The position numbers were made by a program, and so were the translations under genes. Positions 1 through 41,711 of a stretch of 64,000 bases of DNA are shown here, piece after piece. Under the pieces are notes generated by a model. The model saw only the letters and a list, made by a program, of their open reading frames with translations, made no database searches and was not told where the DNA came from. The stretch is taken from NCBI GenBank assembly GCA_963662465.1, contig OY759599.1, positions 6,752,001 to 6,816,000 of the forward strand, in the 5' to 3' direction. Origin of the DNA: Desulfatiglandales bacterium (GTDB lineage Bacteria; Desulfobacterota; DSM-4660; Desulfatiglandales; Desulfatiglandaceae). Within the stretch, counting starts at the first letter, position 1, and each line of letters begins with the position of its first letter.

Positions 1-326
1 GCAGTTAGCAGACCTGCAACCTGACCACATCCGCTGACACTGGGCAGCGGCATAAGACCTATTAATCCTCGTAGGCCCTTCGCTTGTAATCGACGCTTAA
101 AGACATTCAGATACCTTCACCATATCATCCGACCCTAGCCCTTAACCGGGGAGGATTCCCGGAGGGGTTCTCCTGTCACCATTTGAACCCAATTCGGTAC
201 GTTGTCCGCAGGGCTTCACACCCCGTCATCAGCGCAACGGCAGCATGCCTGCGTAGGGTCCGGTAGGAACATACCGGGTACTATAACTACTTGAATACAC
301 TCAAACTATGCGACATCGTGTCGCAA
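1..326 (-). mobile_element. 5' part (domain I) of a group II intron, IIB/chloroplast-like type; truncated by the window edge; inserted in attC R'
   Basis: The minus strand starts TTGCGACACGATGTCGC, homologous to GTGCGACGTGATGTCGC of the intron at 28714-30939. The EBS1-like loop CTGCTAACT (bases 4-9) and EBS2-like ACAAGC (82-87) match the flanking exon GCTTGT-C-GTTGGC. Confidence 0.85.
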
Positions 327-411
327 GCCAACGACAAGCTCACCAGCGCCTCCTCCGGCCCCCGCTGGGACCGCTCAAGTATCAGGCGTCTGGTGGAGCG
401 TTTGGTTGGCC
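327..411 (-). repeat. attC site (main array family)
   Basis: Minus strand GGCCAAC-CAAACGCTCCACCAGACGCC...GGCGCTGGTGAGCTTGTC-GTTGGC; imperfect palindrome with R''/R' cores. Confidence 0.93.
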
Positions 412-13340: not shown

Positions 13341-14256
13341 GGTTAACGACAAGCTCACCGGCCCCCTGCACCGGGCTTTGCGATTACCCCGCCGCGTCCA
13401 GGGGTCCGGTGAAGCGTTTTGTTGTGTGCCGGGCACGGCACGTGTTCTTAAGGGTGCGCGTAATGTACCATGCTTCCGATATTTTACGCAAGTCCCAGAC
13501 CCAGCCAGGTAGTGGCGAAGGGTGTAGCGGTATCACAACTGGGTACCCGGTAACGGGCCTGGAGAGGCAGTGGCCTTGCCGCAGCAGGGCACCGCAAACG
13601 CACGGGGCGACGAACAGAAATCGAGTGAGGCGGGTCTGGTGGGACGAGTTCGCAACACAGAACAAAGTCCTCTAACTACTATAGGCCAGGCACGTATACT
13701 CGGCGCTCGTGTGCGGAAAGACACGTGTTTACCCCGGGAGGCCCGTTGCGTCTCGTAGGGAACTGCAACTGAAATCCACCGGAATATAAGGGAAAACCGG
13801 TAAAACAAAACCCTGGCGTCAGGAACATTTCGAGTCATAGCCCTGACGAGCCCGGCCTATTGGTCGGGAAACACAAACAAATGGACTCGACAGATTGCGG
13901 AAACCACGAGTGAGCGAACCGCAAGGGGAGCCCACCGCGTAACGGGAGTCAGCAGAGGGCATATTAAGCCGGAGAAACGAGCCCTGAATAAAGGGAAGCC
14001 TCACTCCGGTGAAGGCCCGAACGGTCCCACCTGCCGAATGGCAGGGGTAAATGGTCGTGGTTGTCAAAGAACGTGTACTTGTTGGCTTAATGCAGCAGTA
14101 GCTGAAAGGTCGATAACGTCGCATTCTGGAAAACCCGGTAGGGCGGAACCTGTTTTATCCGTGCCTGCTCTGACCAGCCGAATCGCCGTATACGGACCCG
14201 TATGTACGGTGGTGTGGGAGGGGGGAGCTGTGAGGCTCCTCCCTATCCCCATAACC
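13341..14256 (-). repeat. attC site interrupted in R'' by the IIC intron
   Basis: Removing 13424-14252 restores plus-strand GTT|AACC, complementary to GGTTAAC at 13341-13347. Confidence 0.88.
13424..14252 (+). mobile_element. ORF-less group IIC-attC intron, antisense to the cassettes
   Basis: 5' GTGTG; IIC domain I motifs (GGACGAGTTCGCAACACAGAACAAAGTCC; GGAAAGAC...TACCCCGGGAGG); DIII GAGTCAGCAGAGG; short IIC DV with CGC triad (14180 onward); DVI ending CTATCCCCAT; no RT ORF. Confidence 0.9.
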
Positions 14257-28713: not shown

Positions 28714-30939
28714 GTCGAGTAGCCAGGGGATGTTGCCATCCCCCAGCCCTCTAAGAACCGTGCGTGCGCCGTTAAACGCACACGGCTCAAGCATTCCAAA
28801 GGCAAGCCCTTTCGGGGCTACCCGGTTGTGACGTTTTATGCTCTTTACGCCTGTCTGCCTTCTGCTGACTGCGTTGGGCATATCGTTTCCTGAAATAGTG
28901 TTCATATTTCGGATCGAAGGGGTTCGCATCCCCTCGAATTTTGACATGGCGTTTTATCTTGACGTCGTAAGCTTTCTCAAGTTCAATTCTAGCGGATTTC
29001 GCATAGCCGTCCTTGATCACCGCTGAAAAGGACCACGGACGAGATCCTTTTGACCAGTATTTATCCACCAGCCAACTCTTACTCTTGCCCGAATGTTTCC
29101 TCCTCATCCATTGCCAAATATAGCTGTAGATACGGTGATCTACAAGCCCGAAAGTTCTACCGGAAACCACATGCCTGTGGTAATTGGCCCATCCCCTGAT
29201 TTTGGGATTGAGCACTTTAATCAGGGTGTCGGCTCTTGATGCCGCATGCTTTCGGATCGTTTGCCGGATATTGCCTAAGAAGGCTTTCACGTTTTTACGA
29301 GAGGGCTTTATCAAGAGCTTCCCCTGGTATTTGCGTGGATTCTGTCCGAGAAAATCAAATCCTTCTTCTATCCTTGTGATCAACGTCTTTTCCGCTGAAA
29401 GCGAAAGTCCTCTTCGCTCCATAAATGCTTCAATTTCCAGCTTGATCTCATTTAGCATCTCTCTGGAATTCCCGGTGATGATGAAATCATCAGCGTAACG
29501 GATTACGTTTATCTTGGACCGTATATTGCCCTGGATTCTTATCGGGGCGGTACTTTTGGCTGCCGCTTCCAGACCATCCAGGACCATATTAGCCAATGTT
29601 GGAGAGATAATCCCGCCTTGCGGGGTTCCTCTGTAAGTCGGATAGAGCTTGCCTCCTTCCACATAACCGGATTTCAGCCATTTCTGAAGCGTCCGTTTAT
29701 CCATGGGGATATTTTCGAGCATCCATTGATGGCTGATTTCGTCAAAACAGGCCTTTATGTCTCCCTCCAAAATCCATGCGGGTGAGTAGCTCTTGGCCAG
29801 AGAAATAAAACAATGACCGATGGCATCCGCACATCCTCGATAGGCTCTGAACCCATAAGAGTTCGGATCGGCGGTGGTTTCCGCCACCGGATCAAGGGCC
29901 AGTTTGTGCAACGCCTGCATGGCTCTGTCTTTCATGGTGGGAATGCCCAATGGGCGTTTCTTGCCGTTTTTCTTGGGTATGTAAATTCGGCGCAGCGGTT
30001 TGGGTCGGTAAGTTCTTCGGTGCAGGTCTTTTGCCGCCTGCATTTTGTCAATGTGGGTGGACCATATAACTTTATCCACTCCCGGCGTGCGTTTACCTCG
30101 GTTGGAAGTAACGCGCTTGATGGCCAACAACTTGGCATAAAACGAATGGGTCAAAAGCCATTGTATTGCCTTAACCTTTCCCCATCGCTTTTCCTTCACA
30201 GCCTTTGCGATACGCACCTGCAGTCTTCTAACGTGCTCGCCGGCGGTTCTCCAGTTTATGGATTTCCACCAGTTTGTTCCGTCCAAAGGTGCACCAGTCG
30301 CCAAAATGGCCACCGTCATTTGCTTTCCCCTGTTTGAAGATTCTACAAATTATCTCGCAATGGAACACCGGTCAGAAGTCTGCTCTCTTTCGAGCCGGAT
30401 CATGTAGGTGATTACACCGTCAATCCGTATCCCCATCATTACAACGGGGCATTTGCTTTTTTCTGACATCCTTTACCCGCAACCCCATGGGCTCACCTTG
30501 CGGTTCGCTTTCCCCGTGGGGAGGATTACGGGCTTACCATGTTCCGCGTAAGTACCCGAGCAGGTTAGGTTCCGCCCGTACGCCGGTGGCACGACATCCG
30601 CGATGGAGGAGTTCGCAGCCCCCATACCTGGCCACATACCGTTTGGTCCAAGCCTTTCAGCATCTTAGGCTTGTTCTCGTGACGACGCTGCAGCGATTCA
30701 CATGTGTTAACCATACTGCTCAATTCTAGCTCCCTTACCGCATGATGCTTGCAGAGTTGAGGTCTCCTCACGGTTCCCTCTCCCGGAAGATTCCGCGGGC
30801 TTCATTGTCCCGAGAGCTTCACACCCCCGGATTACTCCGGACGCATGTCCCGGTAGAATACCTGTTGCAGAAAACAGGGTTTTGTTATATGGTTTATATC
30901 AATATACAAAACAGCTACTTACGCGACATCACGTCGCAC
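28714..30939 (-). mobile_element. Complete group II intron (IIB, chloroplast-like RT lineage) inserted in attC R', same sense as the cassettes
   Basis: 5' GTGCG; DV GAGCCGTGTGCG...CACGCACGGTTC; 3' CTACTCGAC; EBS1 GCGAAC (30611-30616); EBS2 ACAAGC (30669-30674). Confidence 0.93.
28787..30319 (-). CDS. ltrA: Group II intron reverse transcriptase/maturase, no HNH endonuclease domain
   Basis: INW...VRRLQVRIAKA N-terminus; RPLGIPT; GTPQGGIISP; YADD. Confidence 0.95.
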   Translation of the reverse strand: MTVAILATGAPLDGTNWWKSINWRTAGEHVRRLQVRIAKAVKEKRWGKVKAIQWLLTHSFYAKLLAIKRVTSNRGKRTPGVDKVIWSTHIDKMQAAKDLHRRTYRPKPLRRIYIPKKNGKKRPLGIPTMKDRAMQALHKLALDPVAETTADPNSYGFRAYRGCADAIGHCFISLAKSYSPAWILEGDIKACFDEISHQWMLENIPMDKRTLQKWLKSGYVEGGKLYPTYRGTPQGGIISPTLANMVLDGLEAAAKSTAPIRIQGNIRSKINVIRYADDFIITGNSREMLNEIKLEIEAFMERRGLSLSAEKTLITRIEEGFDFLGQNPRKYQGKLLIKPSRKNVKAFLGNIRQTIRKHAASRADTLIKVLNPKIRGWANYHRHVVSGRTFGLVDHRIYSYIWQWMRRKHSGKSKSWLVDKYWSKGSRPWSFSAVIKDGYAKSARIELEKAYDVKIKRHVKIRGDANPFDPKYEHYFRKRYAQRSQQKADRRKEHKTSQPGSPERACLWNA

Positions 30940-33794: not shown

Positions 33795-35918
33795 TCTCAC
33801 GGTAGGAACGCCGGTCACCCAGCGCCCCCCGCACAGTCCCGGACGTGCGGTTTTCCCGCATCCGGTTCCTCGGTTGTACTCGCTTTCGCGCAAAGCATCA
33901 GCATTAGCAAAACACCTTTCGTGGCCGGGGTGCCGTCGGTAGCTTCGGTTTGGCGATCCCCAGGCGATTTATGGCCCGGTTGAAAGCCTTCCAGGTGAAA
34001 CTTCTCCGCTTACCCCCTCTTCGGTTCAGCCACTTAAACGCACAATCACTCGCCCATCGGTAAAAACGCCATAACGAATTGGCGTTCCCCACCACGCTGT
34101 AATAGTTGTAATGTCCGCGCAGTTTGCGGTTGAGCGTCTTTATGAACGCAATCCCCTTCAAATGTCGGTTTTCCTTCACCCATTCCTTGATGCGCCTGCA
34201 GGCACCCTGCAGCTTTTTACGGCCGGTGCGCTGCATGACTCTCACCTTTCCCTGTTTGTCATAGGTCCAGTAGGTCTCAAAACCCAAAAAGACAATCCGC
34301 CTGCGCATGCTCGGATCAAAACGACTGAATCGCATCATGGCGGTTTTATCAGGCGCTACACTGAGGCCAAACTTCAAAAGCCTTTCGGGCAGCACGTGGA
34401 AAAACCCTTTTGCCTCTTTTTTGTACTGAAAAGCACAGACAAAATCATCTGCGTACCGAATGATCATGGCGGCCCCTTTACAGTGGGGCTTCACCACCTT
34501 TTCAAACCATAAGTCAAGGGCAAAATGCAGGTAGACATTGGCCAAAACCGGCGATACAATCCCCCCTTGGGGAGTACCGCTGTCCGGATGGATAATTTTG
34601 CCATCCGTATCCAGAATGCCGGCTTTAAGCCATTTTTGGATCAGATTTAAAAACGGCGCATCATCAACTCTTTCCATGAGCATTCGCATCAGCCAATCAT
34701 GGTCCATATGGTCGAAAAAGCCTTTGATATCGGCCTCGACGACATATCCATATGATCCAAACTGAAGTTCAAAACGCAAATCATTGACAGCGTCTTTTGC
34801 GCTTCGGTTGGGCCTGTAACCATAGCTGACATTCAGAAAGTCAGCTTCGAATATGGCTGTCAGGAGTTTGGCACATGCCAATTGCACCAACCGGTCTTCA
34901 AGGGCCGGAATGCCCAAGGGGCGTTGTTTGCCGTTTTCTTTGGGGATGTAACTTCTGCGTACCAGTTTGGCACGGTAACGTCTGGTTTTCAATCGCTCCG
35001 CCAATGACGCGATATTGGCCTCAAGATTTCCTTCGTAGGCCTCGGCCGTCACTTTGTCCACACCACTGGCTGCATCCTTATTCAGGTCTTTCCAGCAGGC
35101 ACGGAGAAACGGCGCGTTCAGACACCGGTAAAGGTCTTGAAAGCGGTGTTTTCCATCAACTTTTGCCTTAATGGCTATTCCCTGCAGTGAGGTTGGCTCG
35201 TATTGTTCCAGCCCTACATTGTCCGGTGCGAGTTTCCTTTGCAGACTGCGTACTTCCGTCAGGTCCTTCCCCATGTGGTGGGCTTTCCCCACCGCTGAGT
35301 AGTATGCCTGATAAGACACCCCATTGGCGTATAGAGGGCCATCGGAGGTCCGATTTTCCTCCCACCCGGTTGTTCCTTTCAGCATTTCGGCTGTGTAGTG
35401 AACCACTGTTACTTTACCTCACCGTCAGTGTGAAATAAACTCCCTGGAGCCTTTGGGGCTTCCCGAGTTCTACGGCGCATCTCTTCCTGCATGCCACGGC
35501 CTGAGGACTCCGGCGGACCTCCACATCCTCGCCATAAACGGATGCTTCCGTGTTGCCTTCGGTGAACGTTCAAACCCTCGGCGTCCGCAATTGCTATTTC
35601 GAAGCTGTACCAGCACTTCAGGGTGCGCGATCACCCCTGCGGCCTACAGGATACTCTGCCTACGCTTAACCCATCTTGTTCGCTGCTTCCACCGTTAGGT
35701 GGGGTGAGTCCATCCGCCTATTTGCTCATCCCTGAGCGCGGCTCGTTTCCAACCAGCATATGAATGCCGATGTCCTACACCTGACAGACTGAACAACTCC
35801 GCCATGGGTCCAAGGCTCGATACGGGTGGGTGGCTAACCCTTACAGAAAGCCATTACTGATTTTCCTCCCGACAGGGACTTTCACCCTGCAAGATACGCC
35901 GAGCTTTCCTCGGCGCGA
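33795..35918 (-). mobile_element. Complete group II intron (bacterial class E-like RT) inserted in attC R' after GTTC; non-canonical termini
   Basis: Starts TCGCGCCGAGG; EBS1 GAACGTT (35565-35571) matches the exon AACGTTC; DV GAACCGGATGCGGGAAAACCGCACGTCCGG; ends CCTACCGTGAG(A); 3' boundary uncertain by 1 nt. Confidence 0.88.
33904..35406 (-). CDS. ltrA: Group II intron reverse transcriptase/maturase, no endonuclease domain; true start probably near 35200
   Basis: TSLQGIA.KA, RFQDLY, RPLGIPALED, GTPQGG, YADD. Confidence 0.93.
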   Translation of the reverse strand: MVHYTAEMLKGTTGWEENRTSDGPLYANGVSYQAYYSAVGKAHHMGKDLTEVRSLQRKLAPDNVGLEQYEPTSLQGIAIKAKVDGKHRFQDLYRCLNAPFLRACWKDLNKDAASGVDKVTAEAYEGNLEANIASLAERLKTRRYRAKLVRRSYIPKENGKQRPLGIPALEDRLVQLACAKLLTAIFEADFLNVSYGYRPNRSAKDAVNDLRFELQFGSYGYVVEADIKGFFDHMDHDWLMRMLMERVDDAPFLNLIQKWLKAGILDTDGKIIHPDSGTPQGGIVSPVLANVYLHFALDLWFEKVVKPHCKGAAMIIRYADDFVCAFQYKKEAKGFFHVLPERLLKFGLSVAPDKTAMMRFSRFDPSMRRRIVFLGFETYWTYDKQGKVRVMQRTGRKKLQGACRRIKEWVKENRHLKGIAFIKTLNRKLRGHYNYYSVVGNANSLWRFYRWASDCAFKWLNRRGGKRRSFTWKAFNRAINRLGIAKPKLPTAPRPRKVFC

Positions 35919-36307: not shown

Positions 36308-37483
36308 CTATGCTGCTTGGGCATGTATCATGTCCTGGACTTTATTGAACCTCGGAAGCTCTCTTAACTTTTTGACCGGCGTCAATATTTCCAGAGTTAT
36401 GAGGCGTTTCCCGCAAACAGGGCAACAATCCGGTCGCTCGTCGCTTCGCTGTTGCCAGAGACTCTGCCAATCCAGGAATTCCAGACTTTCAAGAGGCGGT
36501 TGACCCAGTATTTCCCGGCAGAGTGCCAGTTCTTCTTTTGAGCTGTGATGATAGAGTCCGTATGAACGCACCATCACGGTATTCGCTAGGGGGACGTGTT
36601 GCAGATAGCGGCTGATAAAGGTTTGAATCGGCAGGGAGATGAGTTCCACCTTCTCACGACCGTAATTGAAGGTCACGTTCCCGTTTTCAATGCTGTAGAT
36701 GCGTTTGTTTGAAATTGGCCCGCCTCTCAAGTAACGCGCCAGGTAAATCAACACGCCTTCGCCGTATGAATAGGTCTCTTTGAGCTTGACGTTCCATTTT
36801 TTGCGGCGGCCCAGTTTATTGAAGAGGTTCCGGGCCTGCTGAGGCCCCATACCCTCGGGCAGAACCAGTTCGTTCCGATCCAGGGCTTTTCTCAAATAGT
36901 AGAGGTACTTGCCTCGAAATACCGCCCGGACGATGCCAAAGGGCAAAAGGAATTTTTTTGATGAAGCGATCCACTCGCCGGCGATCAGCCCACCGGCCGT
37001 TACCAGACAATGCAGATGCGGATGAAAGTCCAGTTTTCGGCTCCAGGTATGCAGTGAGGCGATGATGCCGACTTTGCCCCCCAAATGCTTCGGATCTCCA
37101 AGGAGTTCGGAAAGGGTTTCAGTGGCGCTTTTGAACAGCAGATTGCCCATAAGCTTGCGGTTCAACCGCCATAAGTCGTGCAATTCATCGGAGATGGTGA
37201 AAATAACATGGAAATGTTCGGTGTTTAAGATGCGAGCCTTTTGTTTTGCCAGCCAACGTTCCACCTGGGTAAAAGCGCAGAGGGGGCACATGCGATGTTT
37301 ACACGAGTTGTACCAGTGCATTTTGAAGTGACCGTCCGGGCACGCCTGCACGTGACCCCCCAGAGCAGATGTGCGGCAACTCATCAGACGGTGTGCCGCT
37401 TCACGAATATGTTCCGGAAGAAGATGGGTCTGATCATAGAGGGCATAGCCTATAAGAAAGATGCTCTGAATCGTCGCTTCCAC
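36308..37483 (-). CDS. IS91-family (Y2/HUH) transposase with Zn-binding N-terminus, as a gene cassette
   Basis: CRTSALGG, YNSCKHRMCPLC, HVIFT, HPHLH, YLARY. Confidence 0.9.
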   Translation of the reverse strand: MEATIQSIFLIGYALYDQTHLLPEHIREAAHRLMSCRTSALGGHVQACPDGHFKMHWYNSCKHRMCPLCAFTQVERWLAKQKARILNTEHFHVIFTISDELHDLWRLNRKLMGNLLFKSATETLSELLGDPKHLGGKVGIIASLHTWSRKLDFHPHLHCLVTAGGLIAGEWIASSKKFLLPFGIVRAVFRGKYLYYLRKALDRNELVLPEGMGPQQARNLFNKLGRRKKWNVKLKETYSYGEGVLIYLARYLRGGPISNKRIYSIENGNVTFNYGREKVELISLPIQTFISRYLQHVPLANTVMVRSYGLYHHSSKEELALCREILGQPPLESLEFLDWQSLWQQRSDERPDCCPVCGKRLITLEILTPVKKLRELPRFNKVQDMIHAQAA

Positions 37484-39273: not shown

Positions 39274-40449
39274 TTATGCTGCCTGAGCATATATCGTACC
39301 CGGGTCCTTATTGAATCTCGGAAGCATTTTTGACTTTTTTACCGGTACAAGTATTTCCAGCGTGATGAGACGTTTCCCGCAAACAGGGCAACGGTCCGGC
39401 TGCTCGTCGCTTCCCTTTTGCCACAGGGTCTGCCAATCCAGGAATTTCTGGTTTTCAAGGGGCGGTTGACCCAGTATTTCCCGGCAGAGGGCAAGTTCTT
39501 CTCCCAGGCTATGATGATAGAGCCCGTATGACCGCACCATTACGGAATTCGGCAAGGGAACGTGTTGCAGGTAGCGGCCAATAAAGGTCTGAATGGGCAA
39601 GGAGATGAGGTTTACCTGCTCACGACCGTAGTTGAAGGTCACGTTCCCGTTTTCAACGCGGTAGATGCGCTTGTTTGAAATCGGTCCGCCTCTCAGATAC
39701 CGAGCCAGGTAAATTAAGACCCCTTCTCCGTATGAATAGGTCTCCTTGAGTTTAACGTTCCATTTCTTGCGGCGGCCCAGCTTATTGAACAGGTTCCGTG
39801 CCTGTTGGGGCCGCATGCCCTCGGGCAGAACCAGTTCTCCCCGGGAAAGGGCCATCCTCAAATAGTGGAGATATTTGCCTCGAAACACCGCCCGGACGAT
39901 ACCAAAGGGCAAAAGAAACGTTTTTGATGAAGTAATCCACTCACCGGCGGCCAACCCACCGGCCGTTACCAGGCAATGCAGATGCGGGTGAAAGTCCAGT
40001 TTTCGGCTCCAGGTATGCAATGAGGCGATGATGCCGACTTTCGCGCCCAAATGCTTTGGGTCTCCAAGAAGTTCGGAAAGGGTTTCTGTGGCGCTTTTGA
40101 ATAGCAGATTGCTCATTACTTTGCGGTTCAACCGCCATAAGTCATGCAATTCATCGGAGATAGTGAAAATAACGTGGAAATGTTCCGTGTTTAAAATACG
40201 GGCCTTTTGTTTCGCAAGCCACCGTTCAACCTGGGTAAAAGCGCACAGTGGGCACATGCGATGTTTGCACGAGTTGTACCAGTGCCTCTTTAAATGGCCG
40301 TCCGGGCAGGCCTGCACGTGGCCCCCAAGAACGGAAGTGCGACAAACCATGAGACTGTGAGCAGCATTACGTATATGTTCAGGAAGACAATGTGTCTGAT
40401 CATAGAGGGCATAGCCGAGAAGAAAGATGCTCTGAATCGTCGCTTCCAC
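39274..40449 (-). CDS. IS91-family (Y2/HUH) transposase, first cassette of the array
   Basis: Same motifs and length (391 aa) as 36308-37483. Confidence 0.9.
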   Translation of the reverse strand: MEATIQSIFLLGYALYDQTHCLPEHIRNAAHSLMVCRTSVLGGHVQACPDGHLKRHWYNSCKHRMCPLCAFTQVERWLAKQKARILNTEHFHVIFTISDELHDLWRLNRKVMSNLLFKSATETLSELLGDPKHLGAKVGIIASLHTWSRKLDFHPHLHCLVTAGGLAAGEWITSSKTFLLPFGIVRAVFRGKYLHYLRMALSRGELVLPEGMRPQQARNLFNKLGRRKKWNVKLKETYSYGEGVLIYLARYLRGGPISNKRIYRVENGNVTFNYGREQVNLISLPIQTFIGRYLQHVPLPNSVMVRSYGLYHHSLGEELALCREILGQPPLENQKFLDWQTLWQKGSDEQPDRCPVCGKRLITLEILVPVKKSKMLPRFNKDPGTIYAQAA

Positions 40450-40730: not shown

Positions 40731-41711
40731 ATGTCAACAAAAAACCAGAAACTAATGGATGATGTTCATTCGGTTATGCGGCTCGGGCATTATTCGATTC
40801 ACACGGAAAGATCCTATTGCGATTGGATTAAGCGTTTTATACTTTTCCATGGTATGAAATCTCGTAATGATCTTCAGGGCGCCGAAAGTAAGATCGAGCA
40901 ATTTTTGACCCATCTCGCTGTCAAAGGCAATGTTTCTCCTTCAACTCAGAATCAAGCCATGAACGCCCTTGTATTTTTGTATAAGAAGGTTCTCAAAGAG
41001 TCTCTTGATGGCAGGATTGATGCCGTTCGTGCGAAAAGAAAGCAAAACATTCCCGTGGTTCTCACCAAGGATGAGGTGGTTTCCGTGATCGCGCTCATGC
41101 AAGGAACACCGCAAGTCTTTGTGAAACTGCTTTATGGCAGCGGACTGAGGATGATGGAAGGCATACGGCTGCGCGTTCAAGATATTGAATATGACTTAAA
41201 GGAAATTACCGTGCGTTCGGGGAAAGGGAACAAGGACCGGATTACTACGTTTTCCGTTTCCCTGGCGCCCCTGTTGAAAAGCCATCTTATAAGGGTCAAG
41301 GCGATTCATGAGAAGGATCTTGCTGAGGGAAACGGCGCCGTTTATTTGCCCTACGCTCTGGAACGTAAATATCCCAATGCCGCCAGGGAATGGCAATGGC
41401 AATACGTTTTTCCGTCCGGCAATTTGTCGCGTGATCCCAGAAGCGGTCGGATCAGGCGCCATCATATTGATCCTTCCGTCATCAATAAGGCCATAAAGGT
41501 GGCAGCCAAAAAGGCGGATATTCATAAACGCGTATCCTCACACACATTCCGCCACAGTTTTGCAACTCACCTCTTGCAGCGCGGAACAGACATCCGTACG
41601 ATTCAGGCGCTTTTGGGTCATTCTGACGTTTCCACTACCATGATTTATACTCACGTCCTTCGGCAGGGAGGTCATGGTGTTGTAAGCCCCCTTGATGATC
41701 TTGATCTATGA
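40731..41711 (+). CDS. intI: Integron integrase
   Basis: [28 protein letters not shown], IntI-specific [17 protein letters not shown] insertion, [15 protein letters not shown]...TMIYTH. Confidence 0.97.

Follow-up and report, generated by a model that had tools for sequence, protein, structure and literature searches.

An ORF-less group IIB1 intron behind an integron attC site in a Desulfatiglandales bacterium, and a lineage of relatives in which EBS1 AAC follows the GTT of the R′ box

The 64,000-nucleotide stretch of Desulfatiglandales DNA analysed here (the window) opens with the 5′ part of a group II intron that lies in sense orientation behind base 6 of the R′ box of an integron attC site. 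We think it likely that this element is an ORF-less IIB1 (CL1) intron that found its site through pairing of EBS1 with the GTT of R′ and was probably moved by the reverse transcriptase (RT) of a full-length relative. Both of its ends could be placed, it carries no ORF, its EBS1, EBS2 and EBS2a are complementary to the attC, and a 3.2-kb element interrupts it. Across the lineage to which it belongs, EBS1 AAC matches GTT at registers +3 to +6. We presume the CL1 label from the likeness of these introns to UHB.I2; the RT tree held no named reference CL1 protein, and UHB.I2 was not among its rows. The RTs of relatives carry RVT_N, RVT_1 and GIIM domains and lie among introns with the IIB1 pattern of EBS2 and EBS2a. 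The genome is a single contig of 8.16 Mb, window base 1 corresponding to genome position 6752001.

The intron start TTGCGACACGATGTCGC that the first-pass annotation placed directly behind GCTTGT-C-GTTGGC was borne out, at window position 326 (minus strand). The part of this group IIB1 intron inside the window (1–326, minus strand; first bases TTGCG) belongs to domain I, and Rfam group-II-D1D4-7 (RF02012) matches positions 278–138 at 79.3 bits. The rest of domain I through domain V occupies the 460 nt to the left of window base 1 (genome 6752000–6751541), where a short domain IV without an ORF precedes domain V (genome 6751580–6751547; RF00029 at 45.8 bits, plus a match to a domain V model; AGC triad). 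Domain VI and the 3′ end, CUACCCGGC, have been displaced to genome 6748373–6748339 by a serine-recombinase element, without which the intron measures 821 nt. The domain I core, a domain V with the AGC triad and a domain VI with a bulged A are therefore all present, and a natural, uninterrupted copy of the same family (825 nt, genome 3333982–3334806) scores 57.2 bits.

The annotation had expected an RT and a 3′ end beyond the left edge of the window and had made its case for an intron depend on finding domains V and VI or an RT there. Domains V and VI were retrieved, with 3,167 bp of the interrupting element between them; an RT was not, since locus L001 15541–16326 has no ORF of at least 80 aa on the intron strand. 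An RT gene to the left of window base 1 is accordingly rejected; domains V and VI exist, so that the element still stands as an intron, in the form of a non-autonomous copy. An empty/filled pair of another copy fixes both ends: in this genome GTTCTC^GCGCCGAGG occurs without an intron at 6745352 and 6787917 and with one at 6379417, and insertion there is precise and leaves no target duplication. No empty allele of the window copy's own 3′ exon was found in the genome, and its first 3′-exon base is A, versus the usual pyrimidine. When EBS3–IBS3 was mapped, the best intron column covaried with the first 3′-exon base in 29 of 54 outside rows, and none was clear.

The 85-nt attC lies directly upstream of the intron start (window 327–411), its top strand being the minus strand of the window, and comprises R″ GGCCAAC (411–405), L″ (399–392), L′ (344–338) and R′ GTTGGC (332–327). 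Its bottom strand folds into the R″-L″-L′-R′ hairpin at −20.7 kcal/mol (z −2.06; 5 of 200 shuffles equal it), and the site retains this bottom-strand fold while carrying the intron. The array, which also holds a second intron described below, has an integron integrase gene (window 40731–41711, plus strand; TIGR02249, 454 bits against a cut-off of 265). A loose attC finder returned 1,260 mostly false candidates, and a motif filter plus a profile was used instead. In a set of 51 sites, confined to the dominant 75-nt attC type, 19 are occupied by introns, and a match to IBS2 did not predict which: GCTTGT is present at 13 of the 19 occupied and at 18 of the 32 empty sites. One empty attC, at window 9429 (minus strand), is a perfect target for the family of the window intron (GAGCTTGTC GTTAGC); the TTGCAAAA behind it mimics an intron start and is none. 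Similarly, GTGCGATAC behind the intron that begins at 28.7 kb was considered as a second intron start and proved to be a native cassette start (7/7 with the next R″).

Other features of the arrays were recorded in passing. The genome holds five matches over the integron-integrase cut-off (one partial), plus further fragments, and at least two kinds of putative attI. An IS91-family transposase (family assigned by scanning the L001 copy) occurs as a gene cassette with the start GTTGGACAGACCC in many copies, among them window 36308–37483 and 39274–40449 and L001 9743–10918; it also takes the first place after a putative attI, and eight copies stand in a row at genome 4.41–4.43 Mb. Two further group II introns are of other types. 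At window 13544–14252 (plus strand) an apparently ORF-less group II intron adjoins the attC at 13347 in the bottom-strand orientation, as IIC-attC introns do, and at window 33904–35711 (minus strand) lies a D1D4-6 group II intron with a 500-aa ORF, the same length as the RT at L001 7339–8841. The replication origin lies near genome 5,769,800 (GC-skew minimum; dnaA at 5,768,458), and 27 of 29 endonuclease-less introns are on the leading-strand template. A replication-strand bias of the introns themselves (27 of 29 against the fork) was rejected, as the orientation of the arrays accounts for it (46 of 51).

Intron 5′ ends number 29 in the genome, 14 of family A, to which the window copy belongs, 12 of family B and three of family C. 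The family-B intron compared in the first-pass annotation (window 28714–30939, minus strand) starts after GCTTGT-C-GTTCGC, inserted at GTTCGC|, and encodes a 510-aa RT without an endonuclease domain (30319–28787). That it shares the +6 register with the window intron was confirmed, and the agreement goes beyond chance, because 22 of the 26 family-A and family-B 5′ ends follow GTTNNN; of the other four, two are stacked behind another copy and two are irregular. Domain I identity is 63% between families A and B, and 90.5% between the window copy and a family-A copy at genome 450963 that has an intact 494-aa RT; the A and B RTs are 54% identical. Copies are about 94–100% alike. The eight full-length ORF-less copies differ at 11–38 positions in about 740 nt and retain the RT start region, and the genome thus combines dispersed, closely related ORF-less copies with an intact related RT, as expected of a trans-mobilised intron. 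Family C has EBS1 CGAACG, with one copy at +5, one irregular and one stacked. At a single GTTGGC attC, copies of B, B and A are stacked (genome 3329531, 3331757 and 3333982).

Domain VI is mosaic among the copies and some 5′ and 3′ flanks form non-native pairs, so the insertion record has been blurred by recombination. Domain V/VI ends have been exchanged between intron families at G000:C1 289760, 3353258, 4983327 and 441432, which is consistent with recombination at the domain V/VI junction, perhaps via the recombinase element, and would rejoin cassettes. Five family-B copies (genome 294147, 3337135, 3345271, 3348955 and 6844194) carry an insertion of ~310 bp at intron position ~1345, inside the RT ORF, seen as breaks in BLAST alignments. 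A truncated family-A copy at genome 2371487 (plus strand) begins exactly at the crossover (G|TTGCG), so that the R′ core is made up of the first bases of the intron; this is possibly a case of the integrase using a secondary GTT.

For the comparison with relatives, which came from other genomes and from metagenomes, the exon-binding sequences were assigned from a domain I profile with 170 near-full matches in the fetched loci, of which 139 external rows that included the 5′ end and 20 nt or more of exon were used (102 outside and 37 inside the attC clade) and the rest dropped. EBS1 corresponds to positions 3–8 of the 9-nt Id3 loop and makes five or six exon pairs in 86 of the 102 relatives outside the clade. 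In the window copy the loop CUGCUAACU (window 11–3, minus strand) holds EBS1 GCUAAC (4–9), all six bases of which pair, one as G-U, with IBS1, the first six bases of R′ (GTTGGC, 327–332); the intron follows base 6, which places it five bases past the G|TT crossover. Covariation in 87 non-redundant outside relatives places IBS2 at −9 to −13 and IBS2a at −14, recovering the 5-bp EBS2–IBS2 and the EBS2a–IBS2a pair that are described for IIB1 introns (PMC8643678). In the window copy IBS2 GCTTG (339–335) and IBS2a A (340), which span the end of L′ and the spacer upstream of the crossover (335–340, minus strand), face EBS2 CAAGC (86–82) and EBS2a U (88; together window 82–88, minus strand), with 5/5 pairs plus the EBS2a pair.

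These assignments uphold one part of the earlier comparison and correct another. EBS1 does differ as stated, GCUAAC in the window intron versus GCGAAC in the 30.9-kb intron (30616–30611). A conserved EBS2 ACAAGC, in contrast, fails: EBS2 is CAAGC in the window intron and CGAGA (30679–30675) in family B, where ACAAGC is found 6 nt beyond it as part of a helix (AAGCC/GGCUU, 5′ strand), a place at which 28 of the 87 non-attC relatives have it too. CAAGC of family A pairs 5/5 with GCTTG of this genome's dominant attC; CGAGA of family B makes four of five pairs, and the EBS2a pair is absent in all 11 non-stacked copies. The window copy therefore displays the 6-bp EBS1–IBS1, the 5-bp EBS2–IBS2 and the EBS2a pair (U-A) of a IIB1 intron, and the attC-linked relatives as a group do not display the EBS2 and EBS2a part.

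The attC-linked introns form one RT clade (SH-aLRT 99; 34 of the 54 rows of a quick tree), with hosts in Thermodesulfobacteriota, Acidobacteriota, Verrucomicrobiota and Chlorobiota. Within it EBS1 shifts in step with the point of insertion: it reads NNNAAC at +6 (nine rows), NNAACG at +5 (14 rows, six of them copies in two genomes), NAACGN at +4 (six) and AACGGG at +3 (two). Three rows, L133, L169 and L171, were assigned without an RT in the tree. The AAC offset equals the insertion register in 31 of 31 GTT-bearing relatives (10.2 on average in shuffles, with none of 100,000 reaching 31), and of the 102 CL1 relatives placed elsewhere a single one has AAC in EBS1. The count omits ten rows of the clade whose junction has no GTT; AAC persists in three of these. 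In L168 (G081), also among the ten and a close family-A relative, EBS1 CAUUAC pairs 6/6 with the exon GTAATG, a compensatory change in the otherwise invariant AAC–GTT core itself. A strict attC fold filter passed 10 of the 31 relatives' sites versus 1 of 70 controls; beyond those ten, attC status was judged by eye, and four of the 31 sites have less than 90 nt of flank. The suggestion that these introns are a family of attC specialists is upheld by the 22 of 26 copies at +6, the single RT clade and the complete tracking of the GTT register.

Families A and B fall in different subclades, and the AU test rejects a single +6 clade (p 4e-66, for a +6 group defined by register after earlier trees had been seen), so that their common register is either convergent or a retained ancestral state; on the RT tree the register changes at least five times. 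Outside the attC clade by its RT, a CL1-like intron of G408 has three copies (L220, L225 and L227) at GT|T of an attC R′ (+2), with EBS1 GCGUUU, and is possibly an independent origin of top-strand attC targeting.

We tentatively entertain the idea, an extension of the preferred reading and not exclusive of it, that this lineage recognises the attC as a hairpin structure, in the manner of IIC-attC introns, EBS1 setting the register only and EBS2 being dispensable. Along EBS2, Watson–Crick pairing is 77, 66, 87, 83 and 67% in 87 non-attC CL1 introns, with 93% at EBS2a, and falls to 22, 48, 37, 37 and 22%, with 41% at EBS2a, in 27 attC-linked relatives. Normal EBS2 pairing persists in nine rows of the clade that have no GTT (4.44 vs 2.85), and family B lacks a pair, EBS2a, that is reported as essential for IIB1 mobility in the account of PMC8643678. 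Against this, attC-linked relatives keep a small EBS2 excess over shuffles (3.26 vs 2.86, p 0.005), family A still pairs 5/5 with the dominant attC and has the EBS2a pair in the window copy, and a folded top strand would tie up IBS1 in the R box. Moreover, IBS2 lies upstream of the crossover, and integrase shuffling after insertion would therefore erase EBS2 covariation by itself. The loss of EBS2/EBS2a covariation may thus reflect reliance on the hairpin, or the replacement of the upstream attC by the integrase once the intron was in place. EBS1 pairs upstream of the crossover are retained at 16 of 18 positions in the +3 and +4 introns (counted by eye), which argues against shuffling as the whole cause.

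A second possibility, which we consider improbable, is a strict niche partition in which the variable half of EBS1 directs each family to an R′ variant of its own, so that the families do not compete. The first-pass annotation had proposed that the introns divide up R′ variants; a bias exists, and the strict division does not. GTTCG sites hold none of the 12 family-A copies and seven of the 12 family-B copies (Fisher p 0.005, on copies that are not independent), and divergence of EBS into families with different targets is known from the introns described in PMC2882425. Over the three variable EBS1 positions, 49 of 63 are paired versus 44.1 in shuffles (p 0.027), or 43 versus 36.9 when only Watson–Crick pairs count (p 0.008); for stacked copies the lowest site of the stack served as the target in scoring, and copies in one genome are not independent of one another. 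Position −3, to which the annotation had pointed, gives a weak signal here (13 of 21 pairs; shuffle 9.8, p 0.10; 13 of 19, p 0.045, once two possibly duplicate rows are dropped) and none in nine relatives elsewhere (5 of 9; shuffle 5.45), among which CCUAAC alone is found at GTTCGG, GTTCCG, GTTATG and GTTAAG. Family B occupies GTTGGC four times and GTTAGC once (5 of 12), both families share one stack, and family A, with three versions of EBS1, also occupies GTTATA and GTTCTC, the latter native according to its empty alleles. As worded, the partition is rejected, since the targets of A and B overlap. Position −1, next to the splice site, pairs in 27 of 30 +6 introns across genomes (shuffle 15.0, p 5e-5).

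Least probable, and in our judgement very unlikely, is that few real homing events took place and that the +6 copies arose by cassette duplication and recombination, the attC match being inherited from one old insertion: the mosaic domain VI, the non-native flank pairs, the about 94–100% likeness of the copies and a cassette (CAGACCC...) led by GTTGGA when empty and by GTTGGC in two filled alleles would fit such a history, but the 3′ exons differ among filled sites, one empty/filled pair is clean, four registers with matching EBS1 shifts occur in hosts of several phyla, and a loose contig end in run X13 (one contig) has the family of the window intron behind another site, ending GTTAGG.

The element that interrupts the window copy lies between domains V and VI (genome 6751540–6748374; 3,167 bp), has the core GTGGTTCTGAGGG on both sides and encodes a large serine recombinase (genome 6749417–6751510, plus strand; 697 aa, with Resolvase, Recombinase, zinc ribbon and HTH domains). 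Of the seven copies of the element, six occupy this domain V/VI junction in intact-looking introns, five of family A and one of family C; beside the seventh, an intron-like domain VI is present on a single side. The copies differ at 6–36 of about 3,160 nt (0.2–1.1%) and their host introns at 11–31 of about 740 nt (1.5–4.2%), with nearest neighbours that disagree with those of the element. Because two intron families are involved and the nearest neighbours are discordant, the element was inserted separately into existing introns, and spread of intron and element as one unit is rejected. What resembled a 13-bp target duplication around it is more likely a shared recombination core, as the family-C host differs in the left copy. 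Rfam also extends a domain VI into the left end of the element; by eye this lacks a proper bulged A and 3′ end, and it was treated as chance. A joint that skips the whole element occurs in contigs of three of four public sequencing runs (X1, X7 and X9) and matches element-free copies; X1 may come from the same source as the window. With 3.2 kb separating domain VI from domain V, the window copy is probably inactive until the element is excised. A literature search of sources other than subscription journals listed no report of a serine recombinase entering domain V/VI.

In the mechanism that we favour, excised intron RNA together with an endonuclease-less CL1 RT would reverse-splice into the top strand of the attC. 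Homing would depend mainly on the three AAC–GTT pairs and on the one that adjoins the splice site; the two variable EBS1 pairs in between would do no more than bias the choice of site, and families A and B would therefore overlap. The ORF-less copies would borrow a driver RT, the candidate by similarity being the intact 494-aa enzyme encoded at genome 450963, as in Thermosynechococcus elongatus, where mobilisation of ORF-less introns by driver proteins is established (PMC2882425). Because the target stays intact after insertion, further copies could stack on it. With the G|TT crossover upstream of it and the attC fold undisturbed, the intron would become part of the next, downstream cassette and travel with it. 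In four cases a putative attI precedes the copy, twice with an integrase gene at a distance of about 1.1 kb, and the three of these copies that have a readable EBS2 show no IBS2 match, a pattern that cassette transport would be expected to give. Sense orientation would permit splicing out of the array transcript; no exon–exon joints were found in the contigs of four public sequencing runs.

Detailed descriptions of attC targeting by introns so far concern class C alone. The lineage studied here would be a second one, which pairs as IIB introns ordinarily do, uses the opposite strand and lands just inside the downstream cassette; it would thereby gain renewable targets and, in the movement of cassettes by the integrase, a vehicle, likely with no block to expression. 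Its series of registers and its weakened EBS2/EBS2a pairing bear on how few pairs IIB homing needs and on whether DNA structure can substitute for them, with relevance to targetron design and to the proposal that introns help to assemble or rearrange cassettes. Taken as one joint claim, to which we give somewhat less than even credence, this would be a distinct and widespread IIB1 clade, ‘IIB-attC’, with a sliding AAC on GTT and EBS2/EBS2a largely dropped, probably reading the hairpin, riding as a spliceable cassette passenger, accompanied by ORF-less satellites and by a recombinase element that parasitises the intron core, and converging on integron sites from the strand and the end opposite to those used by IIC-attC introns.

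Known systems share parts of this picture. Published IIB introns at an attC are represented by UHB.I2 (Sonbol and Siam 2021, PMC7923331), a IIB1/CL1 intron, and our literature search, covering sources other than subscription journals, yielded none beyond it. Like the window lineage, UHB.I2 has no endonuclease domain, starts with UUGCG, follows the cassette orientation and lies at an attC end (PMC7923331); its printed Id3 loop GUAGAACGU, read by eye, gives EBS1 AGAACG, the +5 type, and the attC predicted for it extends 2 nt into the intron. It differs in being a single copy; its authors found the exons not to be conserved and speculated about a role of the hairpin, and the accessible text of that paper gives no AAC–GTT rule, register series or clade. 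TeI3/TeI4 of T. elongatus are alike in class (IIB), in the domain IV ORF deletion with remnants, in proliferation and in EBS-divergent families, which there go to unrelated targets (PMC2882425), whereas here all families share one recombination core as their target and are set apart by register and by loosely read bases. EcKTE56.groEL likewise represents IIB1 introns that have specialised on a single genetic context, which they reach by site-specific homing; its target is the groEL stop codon, not a variable, multi-copy recombination site (PMC12584367). The IIC-attC introns, such as S.ma.I2, are also a monophyletic lineage specialised on attC, although of class C, inserted in the bottom strand opposite to the cassettes at TTGT/T in R″, with a hairpin in place of IBS2 (PMC3001079, PMC7923331, PMC4424553), and known to impede transcription from Pc (PMC3001079). 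Judged by the bottom-strand TTGT/T site, short EBS1, lack of EBS2 and CGC triad of that class, the window intron is no member: it lies in the top strand, in sense, behind GTTGGC, with a 6-nt EBS1, an EBS2 and an AGC triad. The CL1 introns described here take the R′ side and the top strand, in sense, with a 6-nt EBS1.
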